Shown: piece by piece, positions 16,190 through 33,185 of the stretch
How positions within the stretch are numbered: position 1 is the stretch's first letter
Layout of the letters: the number at the start of each line of letters is the position of its first letter
Source: Eubacteriales bacterium
GTDB taxonomy: Bacteria; Bacillota; Clostridia; Oscillospirales; CAG-272
NCBI GenBank assembly: GCA_045658565.1
Contig: JAZOVF010000030.1
Coordinates: 72,893-136,892 of the forward strand
DNA length: 64,000 nucleotides
Direction of reading: 5' to 3'
Notes under the pieces: generated by a model
The model's input: only the letters and a program-made list of their open reading frames with translations
What the model was told of the DNA's origin: nothing
The model's database searches: none
Translations under genes and position numbers: made by a program

Positions 16190-16204
16190 TTTTATGTATA
16201 AAAT

Positions 16205-16241
16205 GGGGCGGTGCGCCAAAAGCGCCGCCCTTAATAATTTT
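16205..16241 (+). terminator. rho-independent terminator
   Basis: GC-rich hairpin GGGGCGGTGCGCC-AAAA-GCGCCGCCC followed by a T-rich tract. Confidence 0.65.
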
Positions 16242-16347
16242 TATTTTATAAATATTAGGCAAAACTATTGAATTTTTTGTAAGTTGATGTTATAATAAAA
16301 TAGTATTATTATGTGTACACTTATGTACTTTTATGAAAGGATTGTGT

Positions 16348-17511
16348 ATGAATAAGGCGTATATGACAACACTAAAGGTTTTGGCTTTAGTGCTCACATT
16401 TGTTTTAGGTATGCTGTCAACGCTCGCTATTATTATCGGTGTTGGTATTTTTGCAGCAAATGAGGTATCTCTTAATAAGCTGGAGGATGTCGGAGTTAAC
16501 ATTGATACCAGTGCACTCTTTGATGATAATATCGACAGACCTATAAGAGATATGTCAATTCTCACTCTTATTGATGAAATCAACTTCTTAGGAACTATTC
16601 CCGATACAGTAAGTTTTGATTACCTTGCTAAATATTACGGTTTAATTCTTCCGCCTAAGGGTCAGAGCGACTTTTTTGATGCTATGAGAGTAACACCTTT
16701 TTCTATCCTTTTTACCCAAGAGGGTATTGACCAAATGATGAGCGAGCTTTTGCTTGGCGATTTGATTGGATATGAGCAAAGAGATAATCCTAACTACAAT
16801 GCTGATGATAAAGATTCAGGAGAAAAACCTAAAATATGGTTCGACCCGGTAAAGGGGGAAGAGGTTTGGGCTATTGAATCTATCATTTGTGATTATACCA
16901 TATATCAGCTTGTTTATGAAGGAATTGATGTTCCCAAGATTCTTGAAGAAGTTCCGATTGGCGAAATCTTTGGCTATCACCTTGAAAGCGACGGAGTATG
17001 GAAGGACAGCAAAGGTGAGCCTGTTCACGGAATTATGTCTATCGTAGCAGATAAAAACCTTAACAACCTCGAGGGCGCTCTTGACAATGAGCCTATGGGT
17101 CTGCTGCTCGGATACGAATTTGTAAAAGACGATGCACACGCAAACGGCGGATATTGGACTGATCCCGATGCTGAAGAAACCAAAGTTGCTCCATTTATGC
17201 AGTATGTAGCAAACAAGAAATTCAGCGAGCTTGACGACTTGTATGATGAAATCACACTTGCTGATATCGTTCCTGAAGATGAGCGTACGGGTTACATATC
17301 TCTTGTAAACCCCGAAACACATCTTTCCGAGGTCTCCGGAGAGGTAAACCGCGTGTTCGAGGAGTCTACGCTTGAAATGCTTGTTAAATGCGGAGCTATA
17401 GTGCTAACTCCGGAAGAGGCTGCCTCACTTGAAAGCAAGCCTGAGCTTAAAATAATGACTATGAAAGAAATGCTTTCATACATACTTTTACCCCCCATTC
17501 CCGTTTCTTAA
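16348..17511 (+). CDS. hypothetical membrane-anchored acidic protein
   Basis: An N-terminal TM helix is followed by about 350 aa rich in D/E. The start is moved to MNKAY behind an AAAGGA RBS. No motif recognised. Confidence 0.5.
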   Translation: MNKAYMTTLKVLALVLTFVLGMLSTLAIIIGVGIFAANEVSLNKLEDVGVNIDTSALFDDNIDRPIRDMSILTLIDEINFLGTIPDTVSFDYLAKYYGLILPPKGQSDFFDAMRVTPFSILFTQEGIDQMMSELLLGDLIGYEQRDNPNYNADDKDSGEKPKIWFDPVKGEEVWAIESIICDYTIYQLVYEGIDVPKILEEVPIGEIFGYHLESDGVWKDSKGEPVHGIMSIVADKNLNNLEGALDNEPMGLLLGYEFVKDDAHANGGYWTDPDAEETKVAPFMQYVANKKFSELDDLYDEITLADIVPEDERTGYISLVNPETHLSEVSGEVNRVFEESTLEMLVKCGAIVLTPEEAASLESKPELKIMTMKEMLSYILLPPIPVS

Positions 17512-17520
17512 ATAACGTAT

Positions 17521-17553
17521 AAAAAAGAACGCCCCGCAGGACGTTCTTTTTTT
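17521..17553. terminator. bidirectional terminator between convergent genes
   Basis: AAAAAAGAACG...CGTTCTTTTTTT hairpin with A- and T-runs. Confidence 0.65.
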
Positions 17554-17566
17554 GTTTGAAAAAGTA

Positions 17567-18538
17567 TTAATATCCAACCTTTTCCCAGCACTCGAAGGGA
17601 GCAGCAAGCTCCTCGGAGATGTAAACCTGGGTCTTCTTTGTCTGAAGCATAGAAGAGGGGAGGTAAGGAGTAACAGGACCGTGTGTGCAAAGACGGCTGG
17701 TCATTCTCTGCCAAGAGGAGAAGGTGCCGCAGGTTGCAAGTGCGTGAACCTCAATTCTTTCCTTAGCGCGCATTACATCAAGAGGACCGATGGTTGCAGC
17801 GCAGGGAGGAACGTTAGCGATATCACCGGACTGACCAAATGTACCGTTAAGAGAGTTCTGCATAATGGTCATGGGGTGAAGCTTAACGATCTGAGCGGGC
17901 TGGTTGAGCCACTCCTCGATGTCACCGCTACCGATAAATTCGGGAATGGGGTCAACAAATGCCATGTGACCTGCCCATCCGGGAGAGGTAGATGCAATAT
18001 CAGCACCGGTACCCTCGGTGATGTCGTCGATGATCTTGGAGTAATCCTTGATGTTAGCGTTAGTGGGGAAGTGAACATTCTCCATGGGCATTCTGAGCTT
18101 CTCGTCGATCTGGTAGTAGAGATACTTGATCATAGAGTGAGCAAAGCCTGCCTCGTAGGTGATAGGAGCAATGTTGCCGTTCTCGTCAGCCCACTCGTCC
18201 TCTGCAACAAGGTGAACCTTGGAGCAGTCAACCTTGAAGTAGTTAATAAGCTGTGCAAGAGGAATGTAGGTGTCAGGCTCGGGGTTGCCGAGGATCATGG
18301 TGAAGGACTTGCCTGCCTCGGATGCTGCCTTAAGACGTGTAAAGAGGGTGGAGATGAGAACGGGGTGAGGGTTCATCATAACCTTAACCTCAAATTCAGG
18401 GTGCCACCAAGCCTCTCTCTTTTCGAGATCCTTGCCGCTAAGGCTGCGAACATACTCGCAAACCTTCTTGTCCTTGAAGGGAACAAATTCATGAGGCTGG
18501 AAGTCAAACTTGGTTGCGGGATCGGTAATGAAATTCAT
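17567..18538 (-). CDS. glucosamine-6-phosphate deaminase/isomerase superfamily protein (NagB-like, long form)
   Basis: GWAGHMAFVDP resembles the NagB G-DGH-AFNEP motif. 323 aa with a good AAGGAG RBS. Confidence 0.6.
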   Translation of the reverse strand: MNFITDPATKFDFQPHEFVPFKDKKVCEYVRSLSGKDLEKREAWWHPEFEVKVMMNPHPVLISTLFTRLKAASEAGKSFTMILGNPEPDTYIPLAQLINYFKVDCSKVHLVAEDEWADENGNIAPITYEAGFAHSMIKYLYYQIDEKLRMPMENVHFPTNANIKDYSKIIDDITEGTGADIASTSPGWAGHMAFVDPIPEFIGSGDIEEWLNQPAQIVKLHPMTIMQNSLNGTFGQSGDIANVPPCAATIGPLDVMRAKERIEVHALATCGTFSSWQRMTSRLCTHGPVTPYLPSSMLQTKKTQVYISEELAAPFECWEKVGY

Positions 18539-18573
18539 TTCTTTACTCTCCTTTATATTTGATTTTTTGTGGA

Positions 18574-19716
18574 CTAATTGACAAGCTTACCGCCGAGGAA
18601 TACGGACTTAACCTCAAACTCGGGAGTAACAATAATCAGATTGGCAATATTGCCTTTTCTTATAACACCGCGGTCGGTAAGACCAAGCATTGTTGCAGGG
18701 TTGGTTGATGCATATTTAAATACCTGGCAAAGAGATGCGCCGGTATGAACCATCATATTTCTGCAAGAGCCGTCAAGAATCATCTTGCTTCCTGCAATCT
18801 CGCCCGAGAAATCAAAGTTAATGTCGTCAGCACCCTCGTAAAGATCACCTGCAGGAATAGGACCGTGGTCAACGTAAGCATCGGAAATAAGAATAATTCT
18901 GTCATCGCCCTTAATCTTCTTAACAAGACGGAGCAGGTAAGGGGAAACGTGAATACCCACCTTGTCGCAGATAAGCTCGGTATAAATAGAATTGTTGTAA
19001 AGTGCGGTTTCATCAACACAGGCGGTACGGCACTCGGGATATTTCTGAAGAGTTCCGGTAGCATTCATGTGGTGAGTGGCAAGACAGAGACCGTAAGGGA
19101 TAAGAGCCTCGATCTGCGATGGCTCAGCCTCGCTGTGACCGACAGAAAATCTAACCTTTGGGTCAACAGCCTTTGCGTCCTTAACAAACTCCTCGATACC
19201 GTCTCTTTCGGGAGCAACTACCCAAACCTTAACAAAATCCTTACCCGCCTCAAGAACAGGCATATAATCATCCTTGCTTATAGGATATCTCCAAGGGTTA
19301 TTTTCTCTGTTGCATCCAAACTTCGGGTTCATATAAGGAGCTTCCATATAAAGACCGATAATGTTAGGTGCATCACCGGACTCCTTAACCTTTTTTAACA
19401 TATCAATTTGTTCAACAAGCTCGGGACCTGTTGCGCTGAAGTAAAGAGCAGGCATAACGTCGGTAATACCGTGCTTAAGAATACGGTTTGCAGCCTTCAC
19501 AGGATCATCTGTAAAGAATGTATCGCCGTCAGCGTGTGTATGTATATCAACAAGACCGGGTCCTGTATATCCGCCGTTAGCGTCAATGATTTCGCATCCG
19601 TCGGTGCTTATCTTTTTTCCAAAATCAACGATTTTGCCGTCTTCAATTACAATAACACCGTTTGGAATCAAATGGTCGGTCATAACTATTGTTGTGTTAA
19701 TTATTGCAGTTTTCAT
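18574..19716 (-). CDS. amidohydrolase, N-acetylglucosamine-6-phosphate deacetylase-like (NagA-like)
   Basis: Metal-binding pattern GLVDIHTH..., later HHMNATG. The start is moved to MKTAIINT. Confidence 0.7.
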   Translation of the reverse strand: MKTAIINTTIVMTDHLIPNGVIVIEDGKIVDFGKKISTDGCEIIDANGGYTGPGLVDIHTHADGDTFFTDDPVKAANRILKHGITDVMPALYFSATGPELVEQIDMLKKVKESGDAPNIIGLYMEAPYMNPKFGCNRENNPWRYPISKDDYMPVLEAGKDFVKVWVVAPERDGIEEFVKDAKAVDPKVRFSVGHSEAEPSQIEALIPYGLCLATHHMNATGTLQKYPECRTACVDETALYNNSIYTELICDKVGIHVSPYLLRLVKKIKGDDRIILISDAYVDHGPIPAGDLYEGADDINFDFSGEIAGSKMILDGSCRNMMVHTGASLCQVFKYASTNPATMLGLTDRGVIRKGNIANLIIVTPEFEVKSVFLGGKLVN

Positions 19717-19829
19717 TTGTAAATCCTTTCGAAATGCAAACAAAATGTAATCATAACATAATTATAATACATTTAAACACCATTTGCGTATAATATAAAT
19801 CACATTTTGTACAATAAAATATTCAAAGT

Positions 19830-20597
19830 TCAAGTAGTAAAAATCTTAACCCCAAGTTCACGTAAGGCATCAAGCTCCTTTTTGTTTTCAGAAGGGTTTG
19901 TAACCAAAACATCGGTCTTTGATACATCTGTAATTCTAGCAAAAACTCCCTTACCAATCTTTGTGCTATCAGCGACAACAATTGTTTTAGAAGAGGATTC
20001 AATCATTTTTCTAGCAAGCGGTGCTTCGTTTGAATAATAGAGAGTAAGCCCTGCATCTGCGCTTATACCGTCAACCGAAAGAATGCATTTTGCCGCATGG
20101 TAGTTTTCAAGCTGACGCTCGGCATCGGTACCGTGAGTAAACTGATACTTTGAGTCAAGCTCGCCGCCAAGCAAAATTACATTAAATGAAGGGTAGAGAG
20201 CTGCCTCGGTAGCGTTTTGTACAGAGTTTGTAACAAGATTTATATTCTTCTTATTTCTTATCGCTCTGAGAACATAGGTAAGTGTAGTTCCCGCGTTCAT
20301 AAAAATAGTGTCGTTATCGTCTATAAACTCACTTGCAAGCTCCGCAAGAGTCTTTTTTGCACCGGAGTTTGTCAGATACCTCTCACTAAGATCCATGTCG
20401 ATATAAAGCTTATTAAGACCGACAGCACCTCCGTGAACACGTCTTAATTGACCCTGAGCCTCAAGAGCCTCAAGATCCTTGCGTATTGTTACCTCGGATG
20501 TACTGTACTGCTCGCTTAGCTCAGAAACCTTGACCTTGCCGTTTTCATGAATCAAGGCGGCAATTCTTGCTCGCCTGTCCTCGGTTGTAAGCTGCAT
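19830..20597 (-). CDS. DeoR-family transcriptional regulator
   Basis: N-terminal DeoR HTH (VSELSEQYSTSEVTIRKDLEAL) plus a DeoR C-terminal sensor domain. Divergent from the kinase operon. Confidence 0.9.
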   Translation of the reverse strand: MQLTTEDRRARIAALIHENGKVKVSELSEQYSTSEVTIRKDLEALEAQGQLRRVHGGAVGLNKLYIDMDLSERYLTNSGAKKTLAELASEFIDDNDTIFMNAGTTLTYVLRAIRNKKNINLVTNSVQNATEAALYPSFNVILLGGELDSKYQFTHGTDAERQLENYHAAKCILSVDGISADAGLTLYYSNEAPLARKMIESSSKTIVVADSTKIGKGVFARITDVSKTDVLVTNPSENKKELDALRELGVKIFTT

Positions 20598-20699
20598 ATC
20601 CTACCCCCTACACAATTTTATACTCATATTATACCATACTTTGAAGAAAAAGGCAAGAGGCAAACATAAAGTATTTTGTTCATTATTTATAATATACTA

Positions 20700-20728
20700 T
20701 TGACTTTTTTGAATAGATGTGGTATTAT
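20700..20728 (+). promoter_or_regulatory. sigma-A type promoter of the kinase operon
   Basis: TTGACT, 17 nt, TATTAT. It is followed by AAACGAAA and TTTCGGAA direct repeats (20751-20805) that may be operator sites. Confidence 0.5.
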
Positions 20729-20809
20729 ATAAGTAAGAAAATCAAATGTCAAACGAAAGCAAAACGAAACTTCGGAATTTCATTTTTGTCTTTCGGAAGC
20801 AGGAGGAAT

Positions 20810-22234
20810 ATGGCACAAATTAAGAAATATCTTGGAATTGATATTGGTACAACGTCAATGAAGGCGGCCGTTTTTGACAAAGACGGAAACAGGCTTGCTC
20901 TGAGAAACGTTGATTACACGCTTGATACAGATGCCACCACCGGCTTTATTGAATTTGAAGCAACAAAGTATGTTGATATGTGTAAAAAGGTTATTGACGA
21001 GCTGACAGAGGAGTGCGGACAGATAGCCGCATTATCCATTGACACTCAGGGCGAGACTATAATCTTTACCGATGAAAACGGAAATCCTCTTTATCCCGCA
21101 ATTGTCTGGCTTGATAACCGAGCTGTGGATGAAGCAGATGCTATTAAGGCAAAATTCGGAAACGAGCTTGTCTATAATGTAACAGGACAGCCCGAAATTA
21201 CCGCAGGCTGGCCTGCATCTAAGGTTTTGTGGATGAAAAACCACAAGCCCGAGATCTTCTCTAAGATTAAGAAAATATTCATGCTTGAGGACTATATTCT
21301 CTATAGTCTTTCTGGCAACTTTGTAACAGAGCCTACAATCCAGTCATCGACAATTTATTACGATGTGGTAAACGGCGGCTGGTGGCAGGATATGCTTGAT
21401 TTTGTAGGCATTGAAGCATCTCAGCTTCCCCAGGTTGTTAAATCCGCATCATGCGTAGGCGAATACAAGGGTATTAAGGTTGTCAGCGGTATGCTTGACC
21501 AGATAGCAGGAACTCTCGGAGCCGGTGTTTCAGATGAAACAAGAATAAGCGAAATGACAGGAACTATTATGGCTATCTGTGTAATGACAGACAAAATGCC
21601 AAAGTACAACCCCGAAAGCATTATTCCTTGTCACTTACACGCAGTCGATGGCAAATATTGTCTTATTCTCTGGTCATCCACCGCAGGAATGGCTCTTAAG
21701 TGGTTTAAGAACAATTTTGCAGAGGATATGTCCTTCAGAGAGCTTGACGAGCTGGCAGAAAAAATTGCTCCCGGCTCAGACGGACTTACAATGCTTCCTT
21801 ATTTCACAGGCTCAACAATGCCTAAATACAACCCCGAAGCAAGAGCATCCTTCTCGGGCCTTAATCTTTCTCATACACGCGCTCATTTTGCAAGAGCAAT
21901 AATGGAGGCTATCGCCTTTACATTAAAGCAGAATTTGGAGTATGTCGGAGAGGAAGCAATTAAAGAAATTCGTATAACCGGCGGCGGTGCATCAAGCCCC
22001 CTTTGGTCAACTATCAAGTCTGATGTTACAGGAAAGGTGCTTAAAACCCTTTCCGAGAGCGAAACTGCTTGTCTCGGCTCGGCGCTTGCGGCTGCGGTTG
22101 GTATTGGAGATTTCACCTCGCTTAAAGAGGCTGTTGACTCTGTTGTTAAGGTTAAACGGACATACGAGCCAACCGGTGCAGATTACACCAAGGCTTACGA
22201 GGCATACTGCAATCTAGACAAACTCTTGAATTAA
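20810..22234 (+). CDS. FGGY-family carbohydrate kinase (xylulokinase-like)
   Basis: N-terminal LGIDIGTTSMKA and C-terminal ITGGGASS motifs. The start is moved to MAQIKK behind an AGGAGG RBS. Confidence 0.85.
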   Translation: MAQIKKYLGIDIGTTSMKAAVFDKDGNRLALRNVDYTLDTDATTGFIEFEATKYVDMCKKVIDELTEECGQIAALSIDTQGETIIFTDENGNPLYPAIVWLDNRAVDEADAIKAKFGNELVYNVTGQPEITAGWPASKVLWMKNHKPEIFSKIKKIFMLEDYILYSLSGNFVTEPTIQSSTIYYDVVNGGWWQDMLDFVGIEASQLPQVVKSASCVGEYKGIKVVSGMLDQIAGTLGAGVSDETRISEMTGTIMAICVMTDKMPKYNPESIIPCHLHAVDGKYCLILWSSTAGMALKWFKNNFAEDMSFRELDELAEKIAPGSDGLTMLPYFTGSTMPKYNPEARASFSGLNLSHTRAHFARAIMEAIAFTLKQNLEYVGEEAIKEIRITGGGASSPLWSTIKSDVTGKVLKTLSESETACLGSALAAAVGIGDFTSLKEAVDSVVKVKRTYEPTGADYTKAYEAYCNLDKLLN

Positions 22235-22294
22235 GCTGTTAATTCAAGGTAGAAAATGTTTTTAAAATAAATTTACATAGAAAGGCGAAAAAAG

Positions 22295-22999
22295 ATGTTA
22301 AAAAATTACAAAATCAAAGCACCTTATTTTGAAATTGGCCCCAAGTGCTTTATGTGGGGCGAGAGAATGCTCAAGCTTGCTAAAGCGGTTGACAAAATCG
22401 CAATAAAGTATGACCTTGACGTTATTCTCACTCCTCAGTACACCGACATCAGGCTCCTCGCAGAGAACACAGAGAGAGTTCACATTTATGCTCAGCATAT
22501 GGATGCTCTTGTTCCCGGACGCGGACTTGGCTCGGTTCTTCCCGAGGCGGTTAAAGAGGCGGGCGCGGTTGGCGTTATGCTTAACCATGCTGAAAAGAAG
22601 CTTACTCTTGATGAAATCAAGGCAACTATCGCAAGAGCAGATGAGGTTGGTCTTGCTACAATAGTTTGCGCTGACTCTGTTGAGGAGATAAAGCAGGTTG
22701 CTCTTCTTGCTCCTAACCTTATTGTTGCAGAGCCTACCGAGCTTATCGGTACAGGTGTTGCAAGCGATATGGGTTATGTAAGAGACACTATCGCTGCAGT
22801 TCGCGCTATCAACCCCGATATTATGGTTCTTCAAGGAGCAGGAATTTCAGGTCCCGACGATGTTGCAAACGTAATCAGAGCAGGTGCTCAGGCTACAGGA
22901 TGCACCAGCGGTGTTATGAAGGCTGCCGACCCCGAGGCTGCTGCTGAAGAGATGCTTTATACTCTCCGTAAGACCTGGGATGAGGTGAACGGCAAGTAA
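22295..22999 (+). CDS. triose-phosphate isomerase family protein (short, archaeal-type)
   Basis: 234 aa. LNHAEKK (cf. the NHSE motif) and AEPTELIGTG (cf. EPPELIGTG). Confidence 0.65.
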   Translation: MLKNYKIKAPYFEIGPKCFMWGERMLKLAKAVDKIAIKYDLDVILTPQYTDIRLLAENTERVHIYAQHMDALVPGRGLGSVLPEAVKEAGAVGVMLNHAEKKLTLDEIKATIARADEVGLATIVCADSVEEIKQVALLAPNLIVAEPTELIGTGVASDMGYVRDTIAAVRAINPDIMVLQGAGISGPDDVANVIRAGAQATGCTSGVMKAADPEAAAEEMLYTLRKTWDEVNGK

Positions 23000-23592
23000 T
23001 GGAAAACAGTTTGAATTATGCCTTTGACACCTTCCGCATCGAAGCCGAGTCTCTTGCCGAGACTGCAAAGGTTCTTGACAGGGAAGAGGTTAGGCGTGCC
23101 GTTGAGGCACTTGCAAAGGCTGAGAGAATTGCTGCTGCAGGCTGTGGCCACTCGGGTATCGCCTGCCGTCACTTTGCACACCTTATGTGCTGTGCCGAGC
23201 GCCCCGCAAGATTTCTTTCTCCTGCTGAGGCGGTTCACGGCGGTCTCGGTTGTATGAAAAAGGGCGATGTTATGGTTCTTGCATCAAGAGGCGGTAAGAC
23301 CGACGAGCTTATGACCATAATCGACGTTTGCAAGACCAAGGGTGTTACTATTATCGGTGTTACCGAAAATCTTTCGTCTCCTCTTGCTACCGACGCAGAC
23401 ATTGTTCTTGCTATGAAGGTTACAAAGGAGTGTGATAAGTACAACTGCCAGGGAACAACAAGCTTTGCAGTTACCTCTGCAATCTTTGACGCACTTCAGG
23501 CGGCTCTTATCGAGTACACAGGATATCAAAAAATGGACTTTGCCCTTATTCATCCGGGCGGAGCAGTCGGAAAACGACTTAACAACAAGTAA
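22999..23592 (+). CDS. SIS-domain sugar-phosphate isomerase (6-phospho-3-hexuloisomerase-like size)
   Basis: SIS pattern AAGCGHSGIA...VLASRGGKTDEL...GVTIIGVT. The ATG overlaps the upstream stop (TAATG). Confidence 0.8.
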   Translation: MENSLNYAFDTFRIEAESLAETAKVLDREEVRRAVEALAKAERIAAAGCGHSGIACRHFAHLMCCAERPARFLSPAEAVHGGLGCMKKGDVMVLASRGGKTDELMTIIDVCKTKGVTIIGVTENLSSPLATDADIVLAMKVTKECDKYNCQGTTSFAVTSAIFDALQAALIEYTGYQKMDFALIHPGGAVGKRLNNK

Positions 23593-23624
23593 TTAAATTT
23601 TTTATATAAAAGGAGAACAAAAAA

Positions 23625-24251
23625 ATGGAATTTAAGGTTTTTCAAAAGGAAATTGAGCTTCAGTCAAGAGGTTGGATACCCACCTTCCACGACGTAACCA
23701 GTGACATTCTTCACATCGTTGAGGAGTCCGGAATTAAGAACGGTACTGTTTGTATCGCTTCTCACCACACTACCTGCTCCGTAATGGTTCAGGAGTGCTC
23801 TCACGACATCGATTCTTTCGATCTTGAGTACCTTCAGCACGACCTTCTCGACATAATGAGAAAGATGATTCCCGATTTCGCAGAGGAGCATCAGTACCGT
23901 CACCCCGGTCCTATCCACTCTCAGTTCGGCAGATACGTAAACGAGCCCGGTGACTACACCTCTATGAACACCGACGGTCACCTTCGTTCCTGCTTCTTCG
24001 GCAGAAGCGAGACCATGACTATTAAGGACGGCGTTCTTGATGGCGGTGAGTTTGCTCACGTTTACTTCATTGACTGGGACCACGTAAGAGCACGCAGAAG
24101 ACAGCTTAACGTAACCGTTATGGGTACTCCAGAAGCAATCAATGACAGAAAGTATAATGGCGGTGAGGTAGTTGATACTAAGCGTAAGTACACCGCTGAG
24201 GAGAAGGCTTACGACGTTCACTACGAGCTTAACTGGAAAACAGGCAGATAA
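23625..24251 (+). CDS. YjbQ/UPF0047-family protein with insertion and C-terminal extension
   Basis: YjbQ-like segments (VCIASHHTTCSV, NTDGHLRS, GRSETMTIKDGVLDGGEFAHVYF). At 208 aa it is longer than the roughly 140 aa typical of the family. Confidence 0.65.
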   Translation: MEFKVFQKEIELQSRGWIPTFHDVTSDILHIVEESGIKNGTVCIASHHTTCSVMVQECSHDIDSFDLEYLQHDLLDIMRKMIPDFAEEHQYRHPGPIHSQFGRYVNEPGDYTSMNTDGHLRSCFFGRSETMTIKDGVLDGGEFAHVYFIDWDHVRARRRQLNVTVMGTPEAINDRKYNGGEVVDTKRKYTAEEKAYDVHYELNWKTGR

Positions 24252-24280
24252 TTTTAGGCAGATAACGATTTGGGTTAAAA

Positions 24281-24967
24281 ATGAGAATTTTACTTGATAC
24301 AGCAAATCTTGACGATATTCGTTATTTTAATACATACTACCCGATAGAGGGTGTAACCACAAACCCTACAATTCTTGCAAAGGAGGGGGGCGACCCTCTC
24401 GCTACCCTTAAGGCTATCCGCGAGATTATAGGTGAGGATAAGGAGCTTCATGTTCAGGTGACTGAGCGTGATTTTGATAATATAATCGATGAAGCTCGTG
24501 CCATTGTTGATTATCTTGGTATCAACACCTTTGTCAAAATCCCTGTTACCGATATAGGACTCAGAGTTACAAAACATCTTTCCGACAGAGGAATAGGAGT
24601 TACAGTAACTGCTGTTCTTACTGCGGCGCAGGCGATGCTTGCATCAAATGCAGGTGCGTCTTACGTTGCGCCCTACATCAGCCGTTCGGAAAATCTTTGT
24701 GCAGACGGTGTAGGAACCGTTGCGGATATTGCAGAGATTTTTGAGATTTCGGGTACCGATACTCAAATACTTGCAGCCAGCTTCAAGACTGCAAAGGAGG
24801 TTCTTGACGTTGCGGTTGAGGGATGCCATGCGGCAACCATAGGTTCAAGCATTATGAAAATGCTTCTGTCTCACACCACAACCGATACCTCTATTGTAGG
24901 ATTTGAAAATGACTGGAAATCGGCTTTCGGAGACACCACGCTCCTTAAGCTTATCAAAAAGAAATAA
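24281..24967 (+). CDS. fructose-6-phosphate aldolase / transaldolase TalC-FSA family
   Basis: LDTANLDDI, GVTTNPT and FVKIP (Schiff-base Lys) motifs. 228 aa. Confidence 0.85.
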   Translation: MRILLDTANLDDIRYFNTYYPIEGVTTNPTILAKEGGDPLATLKAIREIIGEDKELHVQVTERDFDNIIDEARAIVDYLGINTFVKIPVTDIGLRVTKHLSDRGIGVTVTAVLTAAQAMLASNAGASYVAPYISRSENLCADGVGTVADIAEIFEISGTDTQILAASFKTAKEVLDVAVEGCHAATIGSSIMKMLLSHTTTDTSIVGFENDWKSAFGDTTLLKLIKKK

Positions 24968-24986
24968 TTAAAAAGGAGCTATTTTA

Positions 24987-26315
24987 ATGGCAACATTGGT
25001 AATTATGCCCCGTCAGGGACAAAGCGTTGAAAGCTGCATTATTACCGCTTTTAACAAAAAGGTTGGCGATACCGTTGAAGTAGGTGAGGTTCTTTTCTCC
25101 TACGAAACCGACAAGTCTTCCTTTGATGAGCCTGCTCCCGCGGCAGGTAAAATACTTGCAATTTTCAGAGAAGAGGGCGATGATGTTCCTTGTCTCGAAA
25201 ACGTACTTGTAATTGGAAATGACGGTGAGGATATTTCCGAATTCGCACCTAAAACCGAGGCAGAAGCTGCTCCTGCAGCTGCAGAGGCTGCTCCCGAGGC
25301 TCCAAAGGCTGAGGCTGCACCCGCTGTTGAGGCTGTTGCAACTGCTACCGCAGGCGGCGAGTTTGCTATTTCTCCCAGAGCGAGACTTCTTGCCGAAAAG
25401 ACCCACGCAGACCTTCTTAAGGCTGTTCCCACAGGCCCTAACGGCAGAATAATTGAAAGAGATGTTCAAAAACTCGTAGATATGGGTCTTACCGTTTCTC
25501 CCGCAGCTAAGGACGGTTATGCGTCTGCAGTTGAGGGTAGCGGTATCAGCGGCAAGGTTGTTCTTGCTGACCTTAATGCGCCCAAGGCTGAAGAGGCTGC
25601 GGCTGCTGCAGCTCCTGTGGCAGAATATGAGGATGTTAAGCTTCCCAATATCCGTAAGGTTATTGCAAAGTCCATGCACGCATCTCTCTCTACCATGGCT
25701 CAGCTTACTCTTAACACCTCATTCGATGCTACAAAGCTTCTTGCTCTCAGAGCATCCCTTAAGTCGGGAGCAGAGAAGATGGGTATTGGTAACATTACCC
25801 TTAACGATATGGTACTCTTCGCAGTATCCCGCGTTCTTCTTAACCACAAGGACCTTAACGCACACTACCTTGATGACACCATGAGATATTTCTCTAATGT
25901 TAACCTCGGTGTTGCGGTTGATACTCCTCGCGGACTTATGGTTCCCACCCTCTTTGCGGCTAACAAGATGACTCTTAACGAGATTTCAAAGTCCGCAAAG
26001 GTAGTTATCAATGCGGCTCAGGAGGGAACAATCAATCCCGACCTTCTTAAGGGCGGTTCATTTACTGTAACCAACCTTGGCTCGCTTGGTATCGAGAGCT
26101 TTACTCCCGTTATCAATCCTCCTCAGACCGGTATTCTCGGTGTTGACACTATTACAAAGAGAATTAAGGAAGTAAACGGCGAGGATGTAACCTATCCTGC
26201 AATGGGACTTTCTCTTACATTCGACCACAGAGCTCTTGACGGTGCTCCTGCGGCTAAGTTCTTGAAGGAGCTTGTATTCGCCCTTGAGAACTTTGACCTT
26301 CTTCTTACCAAGTAA
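24987..26315 (+). CDS. dihydrolipoamide acyltransferase (E2)
   Basis: Lipoyl domain with ETDKS, Ala/Pro linkers, a subunit-binding domain, and a catalytic DHRALDG motif. Confidence 0.9.
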   Translation: MATLVIMPRQGQSVESCIITAFNKKVGDTVEVGEVLFSYETDKSSFDEPAPAAGKILAIFREEGDDVPCLENVLVIGNDGEDISEFAPKTEAEAAPAAAEAAPEAPKAEAAPAVEAVATATAGGEFAISPRARLLAEKTHADLLKAVPTGPNGRIIERDVQKLVDMGLTVSPAAKDGYASAVEGSGISGKVVLADLNAPKAEEAAAAAAPVAEYEDVKLPNIRKVIAKSMHASLSTMAQLTLNTSFDATKLLALRASLKSGAEKMGIGNITLNDMVLFAVSRVLLNHKDLNAHYLDDTMRYFSNVNLGVAVDTPRGLMVPTLFAANKMTLNEISKSAKVVINAAQEGTINPDLLKGGSFTVTNLGSLGIESFTPVINPPQTGILGVDTITKRIKEVNGEDVTYPAMGLSLTFDHRALDGAPAAKFLKELVFALENFDLLLTK

Positions 26316-26330
26316 TAGGGAGGCTAAAAA

Positions 26331-27689
26331 ATGTATGATTTAATTATCCTGGGTGGCGGTCCTGCAGGCTACAATGCGGCTGAAAGAGCTGCTCACGGCG
26401 GACTTAAAACCCTTGTAATTGAAGAAAGAGCGCTGGGCGGTGTATGCCTTAACGAGGGATGCATTCCTACCAAGACTCTTCTTTATTCCGCGAAGATTTA
26501 CGACTATGCTAAGCATAGCGCAGACTACGGTGTAACATTCGGCTCTGCATCTATCGACCACAATTTCGTTGTTGAGCGCAAGAACAAGGTTGTAAAGCAG
26601 CTTGTTTCGGGCATCGGCGCAAAGCTTAAAAAAGCAGGGGTTGAGGTTGTAAACGCAACTGCAGCTATCAAAGAAAGAAATGCAGAGGGCTTTGTAGTTA
26701 CCGCTGCCGATAAGGAATATGTTGGTAAGCAGCTTCTTATTTGCACAGGCTCTTCTGCCGCAATTCCTCCTATCGATGGACTTAAGGATTCTCTTGCTTC
26801 CGGCTTTGCTCTTACAAACCGCGAGGTTCTCGACCTTAAGGAAATCCCCAAGACTATCGTTGTAGTTGGAGGCGGCGTTATCGGTCTTGAGATGGCTTCC
26901 TACTTCAATTCCGTAGGCTCAAAGGTTTACGTGCTTGAAATGCTTGACCATATCGCAGGCGCAACCGATGGCGAGATTTCCAAAATGCTCCAGAAGGAGT
27001 ATGCATCCCGCGGTGTTGAGTTTATTCTCGGTGCTAAGGTTACTTCTATAAAGGATAAGGCTGTTTCTTACGAAAAGGATGGCAAGATTTCTAAGCTTGA
27101 TGCTGATTACGCCCTTGTTTCTATCGGCCGCCGTCCCAGAACTCAGGGAATAGGCTGCGAGAACATCGGTCTTAAGCTTGAGCGTGGTGCTATCGTTACC
27201 AACGAGTACGGCAAGACCAATGTACCCGGTGTTTGGGCTGCAGGTGACGTAAACGGCAAGTCTATGCTTGCTCACACCGCATACCGCGAGGGTGAGGTTT
27301 GTATTAACAACATTCTTGGTAAAAAGGATAGAATAAACTACAACTCAATCCCCTCTGTTATTTACGCCAACCCCGAGGTTGCATCTGTTGGTGAAACAGC
27401 AGAATCCTGCAAAGCTAAGGGACTTGATGTTAAGATCGATACCGTAACCCTTAAGTACAGCGGTCGTTATGTTGCTGAAAATGAGCACGGAAACGGTGTT
27501 GTAAAAATCATCACCGACAAGGCTCACAACAACATTATCGGCGTACATATGTACGGCACATACGCATCCGAGATTATCTACGGTGCTGCAATGATGGTTG
27601 AAACCGAAATGCGTGTTACCGATGTACAGAAGCTTGTATTCCCGCACCCCACCGTTTGTGAGGTTATCAGGGAAGCTATGTTTATGTGA
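26331..27689 (+). CDS. lpdA: dihydrolipoyl dehydrogenase (E3)
   Basis: GGGPAGY FAD motif, redox-active CLNEGCIPTK, and a second GGGVIGLE NAD motif. Confidence 0.92.
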   Translation: MYDLIILGGGPAGYNAAERAAHGGLKTLVIEERALGGVCLNEGCIPTKTLLYSAKIYDYAKHSADYGVTFGSASIDHNFVVERKNKVVKQLVSGIGAKLKKAGVEVVNATAAIKERNAEGFVVTAADKEYVGKQLLICTGSSAAIPPIDGLKDSLASGFALTNREVLDLKEIPKTIVVVGGGVIGLEMASYFNSVGSKVYVLEMLDHIAGATDGEISKMLQKEYASRGVEFILGAKVTSIKDKAVSYEKDGKISKLDADYALVSIGRRPRTQGIGCENIGLKLERGAIVTNEYGKTNVPGVWAAGDVNGKSMLAHTAYREGEVCINNILGKKDRINYNSIPSVIYANPEVASVGETAESCKAKGLDVKIDTVTLKYSGRYVAENEHGNGVVKIITDKAHNNIIGVHMYGTYASEIIYGAAMMVETEMRVTDVQKLVFPHPTVCEVIREAMFM

Positions 27690-27766
27690 TAATCATTGTA
27701 TTTTCGTAAGGGAGGGGCTTGCTCCTCCCGCACAAAAATTGAAATCAATAAAGGAGTAAATAAATT

Positions 27767-30253
27767 ATGCCAAAGAGTCAATACGTAGACCCCGGTAAAG
27801 CCTTTGACGCTGGTTTTATCCATTTTGAGGATATTCCTGTTTGCCAGTACAACAAGACTCTTACTGAAGAAAAGAAAATTTATACCAAGGACGACTTCCT
27901 TCGTATCTACCGTGACATGGCCATCATCCGCGAGTTTGAGACCATGCTTAACGATGTAAAAACCAAGTCCCAATACAACGGAGTAGAGTACAACAACCCC
28001 GGTCCTGCTCACCTTTCTATCGGTCAGGAGGCTTCGGCTGTTGGTGAGGCATACTGCCTTGATATCAACGACTTCTCCTTCGGCTCTCACAGAAGCCACG
28101 GCGAAATCCTTGCTAAGGGACTTTCCTCTATTTACAAGCTTACCGACGAAGAGGTTTATGATGTAATGAAGGAGTTCCTCGGCGGTGCAGTTCTTTCTGT
28201 TGTCGAAAAGCACATGAACGCAGGCGGCAATGTTAAGGAGCTTGCTATAAACTTCCTTCTTTACGGCGCACTTGCTGAGATATTCGCTCGTAAGACAGGC
28301 TTTAACCGCGGTCTTGGCGGATCAATGCACGCATTCTTCATTCCTTTCGGACTTATGCCCAACAATGCAATAGTTGGTGCATCTGCTCCTATCGCACTTG
28401 GTGCGGCTCTTTACAAGAGATCTAACAACAAGCCCGGTATCATTATCTCCAACTGCGGAGACGGTGCTACAGGACGCGGACCCGTTCTCGAGTCCTTTAA
28501 CTTCGCTTCTATGGACCAGATCACAAAGCTCTGGGGCATGGACGGCAAGTACTCTGACGGTGGTCTTCCTATCCTCTTCAACGTATTCAACAACCATTAC
28601 GGTATGGGCGGTCAGACCCGCGGTGAGACCATGGGCTTTGATATGGTTGCTCGCCTCGGCGCAGGCTTCAACCCCGACCAGATGCACGCAGAGCGTGTTA
28701 ATGGTTACGATCCTCTCGCAGTTATTGATGCTGTAAGCCGTAAGAAGGAGCTTCTCCTTGCAGGTAAGGGTCCCGCGCTTCTCGACGTTGTTACCTACCG
28801 TGTATCCGGTCACTCTCCCTCTGACTCCTCTACATACAGAACACCCGAGGAGATCGAGGCTTGGAAGGCAGCAGATCCTATCCTCGCATTCAAGAACAAG
28901 CTCGTCAAAGGCAAGATCGCAACCGAAAACGAGATTGCAAAGATGCACGAGGATATCACAGCGCGCATGACCGAGGTTATGAAGCTGGCTATCAATGATG
29001 ACATTTCTCCCAGAATGGACCTTAACAAAGAGCCTGATGCAATTTCTTCAATCATGTTCTCTAACCAGAAGGTTGTTTCTATGGAGCCTGAGCGCAAGGC
29101 TGAAATGCTTATGCCCAAGGAGGAGTGCCCCAGAGTTAAGGAAATCAAGGGTAAGATCCGTACCGCAACCGATGCAAACGGCAAGCCTGTTTCCAAGATG
29201 AAGATGTACAACGTTACTGATGCACTCTTCGAGCCGATTATCGACAAATTCTATGATGACCCCACTCTTATTGCTTACGGTGAAGATAACCGTGACTGGG
29301 GCGGAGCATTCGGTGTTTATAAGAAGATGACCGAGGCTGTTCCTTATCACAGATTCTTCAACTCTCCCATATCCGAGTCTGCTATAGTTGGCTCTGCAGT
29401 AGGTTACGCAATGTGCGGCGGCCGTGCAATTGTTGAGCTTATGTACGCTGACTTCATCGGATGTGCAGGCGACGAGATCTTCAACCAGATGGCCAAGTGG
29501 CAGGCAATGTCTGCCGGCATTCTTAAGATGCCTATCACTCTTCGTGTTTCTGTAGGTTCTAAGTACGGCGCGCAGCACTCTCAGGACTGGACAGCACTTT
29601 GTTCTCACATTCCCGGTCTTAAGGTTGTGTTCCCGGCAACTCCTACAGATGCAAAGGGACTTATGACCTCCGCTCTTGACGGAACAGACCCTGTTGTATT
29701 CTTCGAGAGCCAGAGAATTTACGGCTTCGGCGAGCAATTTGAAAAGAACGGTGTTCCCGAGGGTCACTTTGAAATACCCTTCGGTGAGCCTGACATCAAG
29801 AAAGAGGGTAAGGACGTTACTATTCTTACCATCGGCGCAGTTCTTTACAGAGCTATTGAGGCTGCAAAGATTCTTGAAGAGAAGTACGGTGTTTCCGCAG
29901 AGATAATTGACGCTCGTTCTATCGTACCCTTCAATTACGAGAAGGTTATTGAGTCTGTTAAGAAGACAGGTAAGATTATCCTTGTTGGTGATGCTTGTGA
30001 GCGTAACTCTGTAATGAGAGATATGGCTTCCAATATTACCGAGATGTGCTTCGATTATCTCGACGGTCCTGCAGTTGTTGTTGGTTCTCGTAACTGGATA
30101 ACTCCTGCTTTCGAGCTTGAAAAGTCCTTCTTCCCTCAGGCAGATTGGATTATCGACGCTCTCCACGAGAAGATCATGCCTCTTCCCGGACATGTTCCCA
30201 CAAACAACTTTACCGATATTGAAAAGATAGAGAGAGCTAAGCTCGGTCTTTAA
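27767..30253 (+). CDS. fused E1 alpha-beta component of a 2-oxoacid/acetoin dehydrogenase complex
   Basis: The N-terminal half has an E1-alpha TPP motif (GDGATGRGP...NNHYGMG). The C-terminal half has an E1-beta/transketolase-like pattern (GEDNRDWGGAFG...FNSPISESAIVG). It is a single 828-aa ORF. Confidence 0.85.
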   Translation: MPKSQYVDPGKAFDAGFIHFEDIPVCQYNKTLTEEKKIYTKDDFLRIYRDMAIIREFETMLNDVKTKSQYNGVEYNNPGPAHLSIGQEASAVGEAYCLDINDFSFGSHRSHGEILAKGLSSIYKLTDEEVYDVMKEFLGGAVLSVVEKHMNAGGNVKELAINFLLYGALAEIFARKTGFNRGLGGSMHAFFIPFGLMPNNAIVGASAPIALGAALYKRSNNKPGIIISNCGDGATGRGPVLESFNFASMDQITKLWGMDGKYSDGGLPILFNVFNNHYGMGGQTRGETMGFDMVARLGAGFNPDQMHAERVNGYDPLAVIDAVSRKKELLLAGKGPALLDVVTYRVSGHSPSDSSTYRTPEEIEAWKAADPILAFKNKLVKGKIATENEIAKMHEDITARMTEVMKLAINDDISPRMDLNKEPDAISSIMFSNQKVVSMEPERKAEMLMPKEECPRVKEIKGKIRTATDANGKPVSKMKMYNVTDALFEPIIDKFYDDPTLIAYGEDNRDWGGAFGVYKKMTEAVPYHRFFNSPISESAIVGSAVGYAMCGGRAIVELMYADFIGCAGDEIFNQMAKWQAMSAGILKMPITLRVSVGSKYGAQHSQDWTALCSHIPGLKVVFPATPTDAKGLMTSALDGTDPVVFFESQRIYGFGEQFEKNGVPEGHFEIPFGEPDIKKEGKDVTILTIGAVLYRAIEAAKILEEKYGVSAEIIDARSIVPFNYEKVIESVKKTGKIILVGDACERNSVMRDMASNITEMCFDYLDGPAVVVGSRNWITPAFELEKSFFPQADWIIDALHEKIMPLPGHVPTNNFTDIEKIERAKLGL

Positions 30254-30267
30254 TTTATATTAAAACT

Positions 30268-30301
30268 AATGGCACATCGGGCTTTTACCCGATGTGCCAT
30301 T
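30268..30301 (+). terminator. 14-bp perfect hairpin between E1 and lplA (attenuator or processing site; no T-run)
   Basis: AATGGCACATCGGG-CTTTTA-CCCGATGTGCCATT. Confidence 0.45.
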
Positions 30302-30318
30302 ATAGGAATGAAGGATTT

Positions 30319-31290
30319 ATGAAATTCTTAATTTTGCAAACAAAAAGTCCGTATATAAATCTTGCAATAGAGGAATATCTTTTTGAAAAAACACAAGATG
30401 ACGTATTTATTCTATGGCAGAACGAGCATACTGTTGTTATAGGAAAAAATCAAAACGTAAATTGCGAAATAGATTTTGATTTTGTTAGAGAAAAAAACAT
30501 TCATATCGCAAGACGAATTACAGGCGGCGGTGCAGTCTACCACGACCTGGGAAATGTGAATTATAGCTTTATTTCATCGACGGGTAAAGAGGGAATAGAC
30601 TTTGCCTATTTCACAAAGCCGATAATCGAGGCTCTCAAATCTCTCGGTGTTGATGCAAGACTAACAGGCAGAAACGATATCGAGGTAGAGGGGAAGAAGA
30701 TATCCGGAAATGCCCAGTATTCCAGAAACGGCAGAACTCTTCACCATGGAACACTGCTTTTTGATACCGATTTATCGGTTCTTTCATCAGCTCTTCGGGT
30801 TGATGAAGAAAAAATAAAATCAAAAGCAATAAAATCCACTCGCTCAAGAGTTACAAACCTTAAGTCTCTTATTCCTATAAAAACTGTAGATGAATTTATT
30901 GAATATATCTCTGATTTTGTTATAAAAAAATACTCGCCACAAGTCATAGATGCGCCAAAAAATATTTATATCGATGAATTGGAGAAGAGAAACAAGTCTG
31001 AAGATTGGCTATTTCCCAAAAGCTCCTATCTGTCGGGATACACAGTGCGCAGAAAGAAAAAATACGACTTCGGAATTATTGATATAGAGCTTTCTATGAA
31101 CGGTGATATAATTTCCGATATAAAAATCTACGGTGATTTCTTTGGAATTAAAGATATAGTTGAGCTTTGCGAAATTATAAAAGGCAACAATATAGGTTTA
31201 ATTGATAAAAAACTGGAAAACACAAATCTTTCCGATTATATTCTCGGAATGACTTCCGATGAGCTTTCGGAGCTGATAAAAAGAGGATGA
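30319..31290 (+). CDS. lplA: lipoate-protein ligase A
   Basis: LplA pattern (RRITGGGAVYHDLGN, KISGNAQ). The start is moved to MKFLILQ. Confidence 0.85.
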   Translation: MKFLILQTKSPYINLAIEEYLFEKTQDDVFILWQNEHTVVIGKNQNVNCEIDFDFVREKNIHIARRITGGGAVYHDLGNVNYSFISSTGKEGIDFAYFTKPIIEALKSLGVDARLTGRNDIEVEGKKISGNAQYSRNGRTLHHGTLLFDTDLSVLSSALRVDEEKIKSKAIKSTRSRVTNLKSLIPIKTVDEFIEYISDFVIKKYSPQVIDAPKNIYIDELEKRNKSEDWLFPKSSYLSGYTVRRKKKYDFGIIDIELSMNGDIISDIKIYGDFFGIKDIVELCEIIKGNNIGLIDKKLENTNLSDYILGMTSDELSELIKRG

Positions 31291-31352
31291 AAATTCATTC
31301 TCTTTTTTGCTTGTTTAGTTATTTTTTAAAAAGGCTTTACTATACAAACAAT

Positions 31353-31385
31353 AAAAAAATGCAACTCACTTGAGTTGCATTTTTC
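31353..31385. terminator. bidirectional terminator (lplA / rplA)
   Basis: AAAAAAATGCAACTCACTTGAGTTGCATTTTT. Confidence 0.7.
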
Positions 31386-31397
31386 GTTAATATTAAA

Positions 31398-32093: not shown

Positions 32094-32108
32094 CTGTCTG
32101 TCCTCCTA

Positions 32109-32534: not shown

Positions 32535-32638
32535 AATTAAATAAACCTCCAAATGTGGTAATTTTGTCGGGAGAATTCAAAAATATTTTTCTCCCTCCCA
32601 CGCGTGCTTCAATATATGAAGCGATAAAAGCGGAAAAG

Positions 32639-33181: not shown

Positions 33182-33185
33182 TTTG

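Follow-up and report, generated by a model that had tools for sequence, protein, structure and literature searches.

A DeoR-linked sugar gene module and a lipoate-dependent dehydrogenase complex joined in one probable operon of gut Clostridia: two units that also occur apart

We analyzed a stretch of 64,000 nucleotides of contig JAZOVF010000030.1 from an Eubacteriales bacterium, an uncultured member of the Clostridia of ruminant guts (this whole stretch is called the window below), in which a divergent DeoR-family regulator precedes nine tightly packed rightward genes. These genes join an FGGY sugar kinase and four further sugar-module enzymes to an E2-E3-E1 2-oxoacid dehydrogenase complex with its own lipoate-protein ligase. 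The original prediction had tentatively read this arrangement as one dedicated catabolic pathway, in which the complex oxidizes the product of the aldolase. The gene content and the likely co-transcription agree with this proposal; the role given to the complex fares worse, as the two modules turned out to be separable. Independent distribution, which the prediction itself had named as an outcome against it, was indeed found: the sugar core is found without the complex in 39 of the 54 related loci that are informative, and the complex stands alone elsewhere. Because both parts occur apart in related genomes, the dehydrogenase probably shares the regulation of the sugar route without being a dedicated step of it. 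The reading which we prefer, at a probability of roughly 0.55, is operon capture, in which a general, probably pyruvate-oxidizing lipoate-dependent complex would have come under the control of a sugar-specific DeoR regulator in one sub-lineage.

Joined and separate occurrence of the two modules

Related loci were collected by a pattern-limited scan with one genome per species, which gave 169 stretches carrying this subfamily of triosephosphate isomerase (TIM) paralogs, and the best 80 of these 169 were analyzed (L001-L080). A scan of metagenomes with E2 gave only 15 loci, for the most part short ones. Gene calls in the related loci were heuristic and some FSA and SIS genes of distant loci were mis-called; the counts given here were made by tblastn. 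For 26 of the 80 loci the downstream sequence was too short to score for the complex, and the other 54, with at least 1.5 kb downstream, are the informative ones. E2-E3-E1 lies directly 3′ of fsa in 15 of these (3′ of the YjbQ gene in L010), and in the 39 loci mentioned above the complex is missing within up to 8 kb downstream of the sugar core. The fused order was also seen with other flanking genes in L081-L083 and in L026, and on the metagenome contigs L093, L094 and L098. The arrangement is not a product of chance: 15 species-level genomes and further metagenome contigs show this gene order again.

The complex forms stand-alone operons of the order DeoR2-E2-E3-E1αβ(-LplA) in five distinct loci (L085, L086/87, L088, L112 and L113); these are all of the five further places in which E1αβ homologs of 80-89% identity were inspected, and their surroundings are unrelated housekeeping genes. 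In L089 the genes E2-E3-E1 are found behind gpmI-rnr-smpB-HAD-GDSL without a regulator. No sugar-module gene lies within 9-10 kb of the complex in L085-L088, L089 and L112. DeoR2 is only 23-27% identical to the DeoR protein of the window. The E1αβ proteins are 91-99% identical to the window copy where the two modules are fused and 80-89% identical where they are not, and since E1 identity separates the two groups of loci so cleanly, the data fit a single fusion event, in which the complex would have lost DeoR2 and landed behind fsa.

One of the stand-alone operons has a neighborhood of its own kind. In L113 (1792-11487) two AP_endonuc_2 genes, which code for xylose-isomerase-like TIM barrels, and an FGGY kinase gene stand directly 5′ of DeoR2-E2-E3-E1αβ-LplA, and this locus is a second, different sugar-type neighborhood for the dehydrogenase complex.

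The close relatives are metagenome-assembled genomes (MAGs) from ruminant, deer and horse guts, which are labeled Clostridia, Eubacteriales, Oscillospiraceae, 'uncultured Ruminococcus' or Candidatus Flemingiibacterium. The nearest of them, L002, is a MAG from water-deer colon with 98% identity in EF-G and 99% in ribosomal protein L1. TIM-SIS-YjbQ-FSA is the constant core and is present in nearly all 80 loci, with TIM and SIS genes overlapping by 1 or 4 nt in almost every locus. This core is accompanied by one of two front ends. A NagA-like and/or a NagB-like gene was found in 48 loci, either divergent upstream or co-directional just 3′ of fsa, and a FucI/AraA-like isomerase gene in 16 loci, where it is sited between the kinase and TIM genes and often has a homolog of a ceramidase-like amidohydrolase upstream. 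The two front ends are mutually exclusive (both in 0 loci, neither in 16; Fisher p = 2e-8 for the 80 loci), and the dehydrogenase complex occurs in 0 of the 16 loci of the FucI-like variant. Recurrent additional genes code for DeoR regulators (36 loci), AraC regulators (22 loci), glycerate kinase, a CBM9-like protein and GH39.

The proteins of the locus are not equally conserved. TIM, the NagB-like protein, YjbQ and E1 are conserved to the same degree as the ribosomal proteins L1 and L11. When L002 and L004 are compared with the window, SIS is 97-99%, TIM 100% and L1 99% identical, yet identity of the kinase drops to 51-64%. For the NagA-like protein it is 62-63% in L001 and L004, and in L002 this protein was not detected. 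LplA is only 47-76% identical among the fused relatives, that is 76% in L002 and 47-66% in the other fused loci. For kinase, NagA-like protein and LplA the pattern suggests that recombination has replaced the alleles of particular genes within a conserved operon. We rejected the possibility that the kinases of different loci belong to unrelated FGGY families, as 44 of 45 join by single linkage at ≥60% identity; on the same ground the kinases are, as judged from their sequences, one fast-evolving, recombining group.

Operon structure and control region

The nine genes, their order and the eight gaps between kinase and lplA (60, -1, 32, 29, 19, 15, 77 and 65 nt) had been predicted, and the map of open reading frames (ORFs) and direct sequence reads reproduced them to the base. 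The 19-nt spacer between fsa and E2 contains a ribosome-binding site (RBS) and nothing else. This junction measures 17-19 nt throughout the clade of the window, with the RBS only, and 54-78 nt with a hairpin lacking a U-tract in some of the fused relatives. No T-run terminator had been expected before the end of lplA, and the terminator scan indeed found no stem followed by a T-run on the plus strand between operon genes before 31278-31307. The operon ends at two terminator hairpins on the plus strand (31278-31307 and 31355-31384), the second of which is bidirectional and common to rplA. A weak terminator-like site within fsa (24448-24471) is not meaningful when taken alone, because the scan gave 22 such sites in total and 14 are expected from shuffles. 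Given the tight packing and a spacer with only an RBS, co-transcription of fsa and E2 is likely, and all nine rightward genes are likely to be transcribed together from the DeoR-controlled promoter.

The rightward operon starts at a sigma-70-type promoter (20700-20728, plus strand) of the sequence TTGACT-17-TATTAT with an extended -10 element (TG) and 10 of 12 consensus matches, at the position that had been proposed. A second promoter on the minus strand (20724-20752; TTGACA-17-TATAAT, 12 of 12 matches) serves deoR-nagA-nagB in the leftward direction, and the -10 hexamers of the two promoters overlap one another. The regulator gene itself (19830-20597, minus strand) is divergent from the kinase operon, as stated by the original prediction, and its presumed role is now supported by a conserved operator motif. 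The regulator has both the HTH_DeoR and the DeoRC domain and thus, together with the repeated half-sites described below, the features of a DeoR/AgaR-type repressor; with 186.9 bits it stays below the cut-off of 260 of the AgaR model, and we call it AgaR-like.

The candidate operator (20751-20795, no strand assigned) is located in the kinase leader and consists of the tandem repeat AAACGAAA-N3-AAACGAAA at 20751-20769 and an inverted partial copy at 20785-20795. It overlaps the -35 element of the leftward (deoR) promoter and lies about 17-35 nt 3′ of the inferred start of the rightward transcript. The tandem motif occurs a single time in the 64-kb window, with 0 occurrences expected by chance. 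With its spacing of about 11 bp it is present in at least 14 loci with the divergent DeoR gene or its intergenic region, against a background of 0.11 per kb; besides the window they include L001-L004, L006, L007, L010, L014, L018, L026, L030, L037 and L052. It was not found in loci without that DeoR. We therefore regard the AAACGAAA repeats as a candidate operator of the AgaR-like DeoR protein; they resemble the TTTCGTTT-rich AgaR operator.

Between E1 and lplA there is a hairpin with a 16-bp stem (30267-30302, plus strand; -27 kcal/mol, z = -6.3) which has no T-run on the plus strand. A hairpin with a stem core ACATCGGG...CCCGATGT was also found 3′ of the E1 stop codon in L005, L006, L010 and L030, and in L056 a canonical terminator takes this position; a hairpin or terminator 3′ of E1 is usual. 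Because the hairpin lacks a U-tract on the plus strand, it may act as a stabilizer of the mRNA 3′ end or as an attenuator and not as a full terminator. Since a hairpin or terminator usually follows E1 and lplA alleles have apparently been exchanged, LplA is best described as a loosely attached accessory gene. In L014 the spacer between E1 and lplA (18141-18482) contains 3.8 tandem copies of a GC-rich unit of 90 nt (92% matches), which replace the simple hairpin.

No transporter gene adjoins the locus, in line with the original prediction; the flanks are EF-G, a single-pass membrane protein and rplA-rplK-nusG. The ORF hyp392 (16333-17511) was considered as a transporter and rejected, as it has a single N-terminal transmembrane helix only. 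Rfam gave no riboswitch or leader in the region 16000-34000. A sub-threshold match to 'Phe_leader' at 31289-31387 (31 bits, gathering score 55) falls on the terminator hairpins behind lplA and is almost certainly a false positive. Further away on the minus strand, the window (3678-8844) codes for a carboxyltransferase, two small ORFs, an OAD_beta membrane subunit and an HMGL/PYC_OADA alpha-type subunit; this cluster looks like a Na+-translocating decarboxylase for methylmalonyl-CoA or oxaloacetate.

Enzymes of the two modules and a proposed reaction scheme

The family labels of the original prediction were borne out by Pfam and NCBIfam, except for the NagB-like protein, which has no Pfam match and is supported by a profile, a structure model and Foldseek. 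Every protein of the locus belongs to a known superfamily, and several depart from their families at defining residues. Most of the sugar-module enzymes score under the NCBIfam equivalog cut-offs, and the module is not orthologous to the nag/aga, xyl, ribulose monophosphate or erythritol layouts, as had been expected. The literature searches turned up neither a report of this gene combination nor a work that defines what YjbQ does, and they gave nothing for a fused-E1 complex in gut Clostridia; as far as the comparison of sequences goes, the sugar module matches no characterized pathway that we found.

The NagB-like deaminase/isomerase (323 aa; 17567-18538, minus strand, divergent) is one of a small family that has no Pfam model; a search of 1.84 billion proteins gave 390 representatives of it at E ≤ 1e-3. 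A profile built from diverse members matches glucosamine 6-phosphate deaminases (E = 5e-28). An AlphaFold2 model built on a diverse alignment has a pLDDT of 91.8 and finds NagB proteins as top Foldseek matches at E = 1e-16 (5hj5, TM score 0.76 normalized to the target); a single-sequence model reached a pLDDT of only 32 and was not usable. The catalytic Asp (D114, in 'EDEW' for MDEY of NagB) and His (H191, in 'GHMAF') are retained and align with Asp72 and His143. At the positions of the phosphate binders Arg172 and Lys208 the profile alignment places Leu230 and Pro245, and the TGGT loop gives way to another sequence, with a deletion of two residues and GNPEPDT in the window; the roles named for these residues are those in E. 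coli NagB. Most related loci have a copy with 85-99% identity, and a second subgroup one with about 70%. In L104, a distant locus, a homolog with 41% identity adjoins SIS, YjbQ, DeoR and amidohydrolase genes and a complete CUT2 ABC importer. More distant homologs (30-33% identity) adjoin other amidohydrolases, in L111 also a CUT2 ABC importer and an AraC regulator.

The NagA-like amidohydrolase (389 aa; 18574-19743, minus strand) aligns over its full length with the nagA model TIGR00221 at 168.6 bits, below the cut-off of 225.65, and NagA structures match at E = 1e-24. For the FGGY kinase (474 aa; 20810-22234, plus strand, as are all following genes) the ORF opens at 20717 and the probable start is the ATG at 20810 behind GGAGGA. 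It has the FGGY_N and FGGY_C domains and scores 313.7 bits with the XylB model, below the cut-off of 380; its matches in the PDB are spread evenly across gluconate, glycerol, autoinducer-2 (AI-2) and xylulose kinases (138-156 bits).

The archaeal-type TIM paralog (234 aa; 22295-22999) scores 203 bits with NF003302, above the cut-off of 132, and matches the structure of Pyrococcus woesei TIM (1hg3) at E = 1e-47. Compared with this enzyme Lys17, His98 and Glu146 are retained and the substrate-contacting Asn of N-x-K is replaced by Gly (GPK), a replacement that is invariant in 11 aligned family members. Across 80 species the paralog is 82-100% identical. It was rejected as the only TIM of the organism, since a contig of the same lineage (L089) carries a canonical pgk-tpiA-gpmI cluster. 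As a canonical tpiA is present in the lineage, the TIM-like gene is an extra paralog, probably with an altered substrate.

The SIS sugar-phosphate isomerase (22999-23592) has a single KpsF/GutQ-like domain without a CBS pair, and its start overlaps the TIM stop codon. Its best match in the PDB is 3fxa, an SIS protein of Listeria (E = 1.5e-49), and next come 5uqi, 3etn and 2xhz, which are single-domain arabinose-5-phosphate isomerases; the kpsF model gives 127 bits, below the cut-off of 203.7. The residues aligned with His88 and Glu152 of KdsD are retained, as is HPGG, which it has in common with 5uqi. The position of the KdsD residue Lys59 is occupied by His (GCGHSG), and because of this replacement the protein is, on its sequence, a member of a separate subfamily. 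Phosphoglucose isomerase was rejected as an assignment, as the window has a separate gene for this enzyme at 51371-52756.

The long YjbQ/UPF0047 protein (208 aa; 23625-24251) matches PF01894 at E = 2.8e-24 and TIGR00149 with 65.5 bits, the cut-off being 67.75, and its gene is still found together with that of SIS in L104, a distant locus. The FSA-type class I aldolase (228 aa; 24281-24967) has a TAL_FSA domain; its Gln59, Schiff-base Lys86 and Tyr132 are kept without exception by 49 orthologs. Its Gln and Tyr align with those of the E60Q/F132Y variant of the Thermoplasma acidophilum transaldolase (TacTal, 4xz9), against Glu and Phe in the transaldolase of T. maritima (1vpx), and the assignment as a transaldolase was therefore rejected. 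The equivalog scores were missed with 192.2 bits for NF009299 (214) and 191.9 bits for TIGR00875 (245.95).

The dehydrogenase complex is complete and looks functional. E2, the dihydrolipoyl acyltransferase (24987-26315), has the lipoyl, E3-binding and catalytic domains (PF00364, PF02817 and PF00198) with the lipoyl Lys43 in ETDKS and DHRALDG from residue 413 on. E3, the dihydrolipoyl dehydrogenase (26331-27689), scores 468 bits with TIGR01350, above the cut-off of 408.8, and has the redox disulfide motif CLNEGC. The thiamine diphosphate (ThDP)-dependent E1 (27767-30253) is a fused alpha-beta protein, which carries E1_dh, Transket_pyr and Transketolase_C (PF00676, PF02779 and PF02780) on one chain of 828 aa with GDG at residue 231. 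Its GDG...NN ThDP motif (residues ~231-280) looks longer than usual, with an apparent insertion of about 15 residues (DQITKLWGMDGKYSDGG), and the alpha N-terminus seems to be longer, too; we know of no study of such an insertion or extension in any characterized E1. LplA (30319-31290, with the start ATG at 30319) scores 352 bits with TIGR00545, above the cut-off of 280, and has both PF21948 and PF10437.

The best NCBIfam models for E1 and E2 are of the pyruvate dehydrogenase (PDH) type and all remain below cut-off (score/cut-off: E2 262.6/722 and 251/445 bits, E1 beta 247.9/321, E1 alpha 207.5/393.85). The features of acetoin dehydrogenase were not found, in that the AcoC-type model PRK14875 matches the lipoyl domain only, with 45.5 bits against 307. 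The sequences did not discriminate between PDH, BCKDH and acetoin specificity; pyruvate is the most likely substrate of the complex.

In the scheme which we propose for operon capture, the sugar part would be a divergon under AgaR-like DeoR control for an (N-acyl)amino sugar or a ketose, with deoR and the nagA-like and nagB-like genes transcribed leftward and the genes of the FGGY kinase, the TIM paralog, SIS, YjbQ and FSA rightward. The NagA-like enzyme would deacylate a free N-acyl amino sugar, and the NagB-like enzyme, without the phosphate-binding residues of NagB, would deaminate and isomerize the product to a ketose. The FGGY kinase would phosphorylate this ketose and the SIS aldose-ketose isomerase would rearrange it, before the FSA-type aldolase would cleave it to a phosphorylated aldehyde and a ketol without phosphate, the ketol being of the dihydroxyacetone or glycolaldehyde type. 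The aldehyde would be isomerized by the TIM paralog, and the chemistry of the sugar module itself would end at triose-level products. The ABC-importer context, the exclusive FucI-like isomerase and the missing phosphate site of the NagB-like protein together suggest free sugars without phosphate as the substrates of the early steps and the ketose formed from them as the substrate of the FGGY kinase; the FucI-like family acts on free aldoses.

The genes E2-E3-E1αβ-LplA would make up a lipoate-dependent 2-oxoacid dehydrogenase complex that is self-contained and brings along the enzyme for its lipoylation. In relatives this complex is an independent operon behind its own DeoR paralog, and in the clade of the window it would have been placed behind fsa with loss of this regulator. 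It would now be transcribed from the sugar promoter and repressed by the DeoR of the sugar module at the AAACGAAA repeats, with the general role of converting sugar-derived pyruvate to acetyl-CoA. Gene families, signature residues, synteny statistics and the conserved operator motif are direct observations; the reaction order, the substrates, the co-transcription and pyruvate as the substrate of E1 we infer.

If the module works as proposed, it would be a new catabolic route for a sugar or amino sugar, one that many uncultured bacteria of the Oscillospiraceae type share in the guts of ruminants and equines, and it would give functions to three poorly understood groups of proteins, namely YjbQ/UPF0047, the NagB-like family without a Pfam model and bacterial archaeal-type TIM paralogs. 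The fused operon would be a clean natural example of a complex of central metabolism captured under a sugar-specific repressor. It also shows strict gut anaerobes maintaining a lipoate-dependent dehydrogenase that is highly conserved and has a scavenging ligase to itself. It is also a warning for annotation: tight packing in an operon is no proof of a shared pathway unless the distribution of the modules has been checked.

Competing explanations and related systems

Several observations weigh against operon capture. All comparisons were made on MAG contigs. At least 15 species retain the fusion, and it occurs again among other flanking genes, which argues for a selective value, and five of the six distinct unfused loci are also under DeoR-family regulation; regulators of this family typically sense sugar phosphates. 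In L113 the complex directly follows an FGGY kinase and two AP_endonuc_2 genes of the isomerase/epimerase type. Moreover, E1 and E2 miss every PDH equivalog cut-off, and PDH does not usually show the order E2-E3-E1, an alpha-beta fusion or an insertion like the apparent one in the ThDP motif, so that a substrate other than pyruvate, for example acetoin or another alpha-hydroxyketone, is possible.

Most of these points speak for the one-route reading of the original prediction, in which the ThDP- and lipoate-dependent complex would act directly on a C2-C4 carbonyl or alpha-hydroxyketone from the sugar module and convert it to an acyl-CoA in the manner of acetoin dehydrogenase. Tentative candidates for the compound oxidized are a hydroxyacetone- or acetoin-like fragment, a deoxy-ketose phosphate, or a diketone such as phosphorylated 4,5-dihydroxy-2,3-pentanedione (phospho-DPD). 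The packing of nine genes behind one promoter with the 19-nt junction between fsa and E2 fits this well. FSA-type aldolases release unphosphorylated ketols, and such products have no direct entry to glycolysis. On the other hand, the complex is missing behind most of the informative sugar cores and from the 16 loci of the FucI-like variant, it stands without a sugar-module gene within 9-10 kb in several loci, the fusion appears to go back to a single event, and the AcoC-type model recognizes nothing beyond the lipoyl domain. The single dedicated route is thus weakened and in our view rather doubtful, and it keeps the weight that it has because the fusion is stable, the unfused loci are mostly DeoR-regulated, L113 offers a sugar context, E1 is atypical and FSA yields ketols. 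The fuller version is equally tentative, namely that the core with either front end is an undescribed pathway for non-phosphorylated (N-acyl)amino sugars and the matching aldoses in herbivore-gut Clostridia, whose ketol or alpha-hydroxyketone the fused complex would take to acyl-CoA. If true, it would provide the first physiological roles for YjbQ/UPF0047 and for a bacterial archaeal-type TIM paralog.

The two remaining explanations are weaker than operon capture and the dedicated route. According to the first, the sugar part would serve internal salvage or repair, or would be a shunt that rearranges carbon, for example for amino sugars from the cell wall or glycans or for damaged sugar phosphates, and its adjacency to dehydrogenase and ribosomal genes would reflect nothing but constitutive, highly expressed housekeeping neighborhoods. 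A transporter gene adjoins neither the window locus nor most of the 80 loci, the neighbors are EF-G and rplA-rplK-nusG, several of the proteins are conserved like L1 and L11, and the literature searched holds no defining study of a primary function of the YjbQ family. A dedicated DeoR with a conserved operator motif and AraC regulators in 22 loci are, however, typical of inducible catabolism; the distant locus L104, with its NagB-like, SIS and YjbQ genes, does have a complete importer, and kinase and NagA-like protein are swapped between close relatives as expected for substrate-specific front-end enzymes. We consider this explanation unlikely.

Least probable of all, and in our opinion very unlikely, is an analogue of the tetrose (erythritol, erythrulose or threitol) routes, with a kinase that makes a tetrulose phosphate, a TIM paralog that moves the carbonyl group like EryH or LerI, an SIS protein that replaces the RpiB-type DerI/EryI to give tetrose 4-phosphate and FSA as the link to central metabolism: an FGGY kinase, a TIM-family isomerase and an aldose-ketose isomerase do share one operon, and the TIM paralog is additional to canonical tpiA with Gly for the substrate-contacting Asn, but polyol dehydrogenase, racemase and RpiB-type proteins were not found in the window region or the 80 loci, the tight link of the core to the NagA-like/NagB-like pair or the FucI-like isomerase suggests entry of an aldose or amino-aldose and not of a polyol, the TIM is archaeal-type and not of the bacterial TpiA2 type, and the aldolase has FSA-type and not transaldolase-type residues.

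The erythritol and erythrulose routes themselves (EryA-EryH/TpiA2-EryI/RpiB of Brucella and LerK-LerI-DerI of M. smegmatis) are nevertheless among the closest known systems, as they combine an FGGY kinase with an extra TIM-family protein and an aldose-ketose isomerase. The window differs from them by the archaeal type of its TIM, by SIS in place of RpiB, by the lack of a polyol dehydrogenase or racemase and by a front end of the amino-sugar type. Single enzymes also have well-studied relatives. Like the single-domain arabinose-5-phosphate isomerases (E. coli c3406, the B. fragilis API protein and the SIS domain of KdsD) and 3fxa, the SIS protein is one domain of about 200 aa without CBS and has the equivalents of His88 and Glu152 of KdsD as well as the HPGG of 5uqi; the catalytic Lys59 of KdsD corresponds to His in the window and to Thr in 3fxa. 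With E. coli FsaA and FsaB (TalC/MipB subfamily) the aldolase shares a length of about 220 aa, the fold of class I aldolases, the Schiff-base Lys and the pair Gln59 and Tyr131; in contrast to them it scores 192 bits against cut-offs of 214 and 246 and is part of a conserved operon with TIM, SIS and YjbQ.

Of the complete pathways, catabolism of N-acetylglucosamine and N-acetylgalactosamine (NagA-NagB; AgaR-AgaA-AgaS/AgaI) is similar in its NagA-family amidohydrolase, its NagB-fold enzyme, its divergent organization and its AgaR-like DeoR repressor with repeated operator half-sites of the TTTCGTTT type. Unlike these systems, the window has a NagB-like protein from a separate family without a Pfam model and without Arg172 and Lys208, and an FGGY kinase instead of an ROK kinase or a phosphotransferase system (PTS); it has no PfkB and no tagatose-bisphosphate aldolase, and its TIM paralog, KpsF-like SIS protein, YjbQ and FSA are without nag or aga counterparts. 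The dehydrogenase complex finally compares with pdhABCD and acoABCL of Gram-positive bacteria. It departs from them in the fusion of E1 alpha and beta to 828 aa, the apparent insertion in the ThDP motif, the order E2-E3-E1, the attached lplA, a regulation by a DeoR-family protein and not by AcoR/sigma-54, and scores that miss all the PDH, OGDH and Aco equivalog cut-offs; it shares with them the ThDP-dependent E1, whose alpha part is of the 'HL..GQEA' type of PDH and Aco, the lipoyl E2 with E3-binding domain and DHRxxDG, and the FAD- and NAD-dependent E3.

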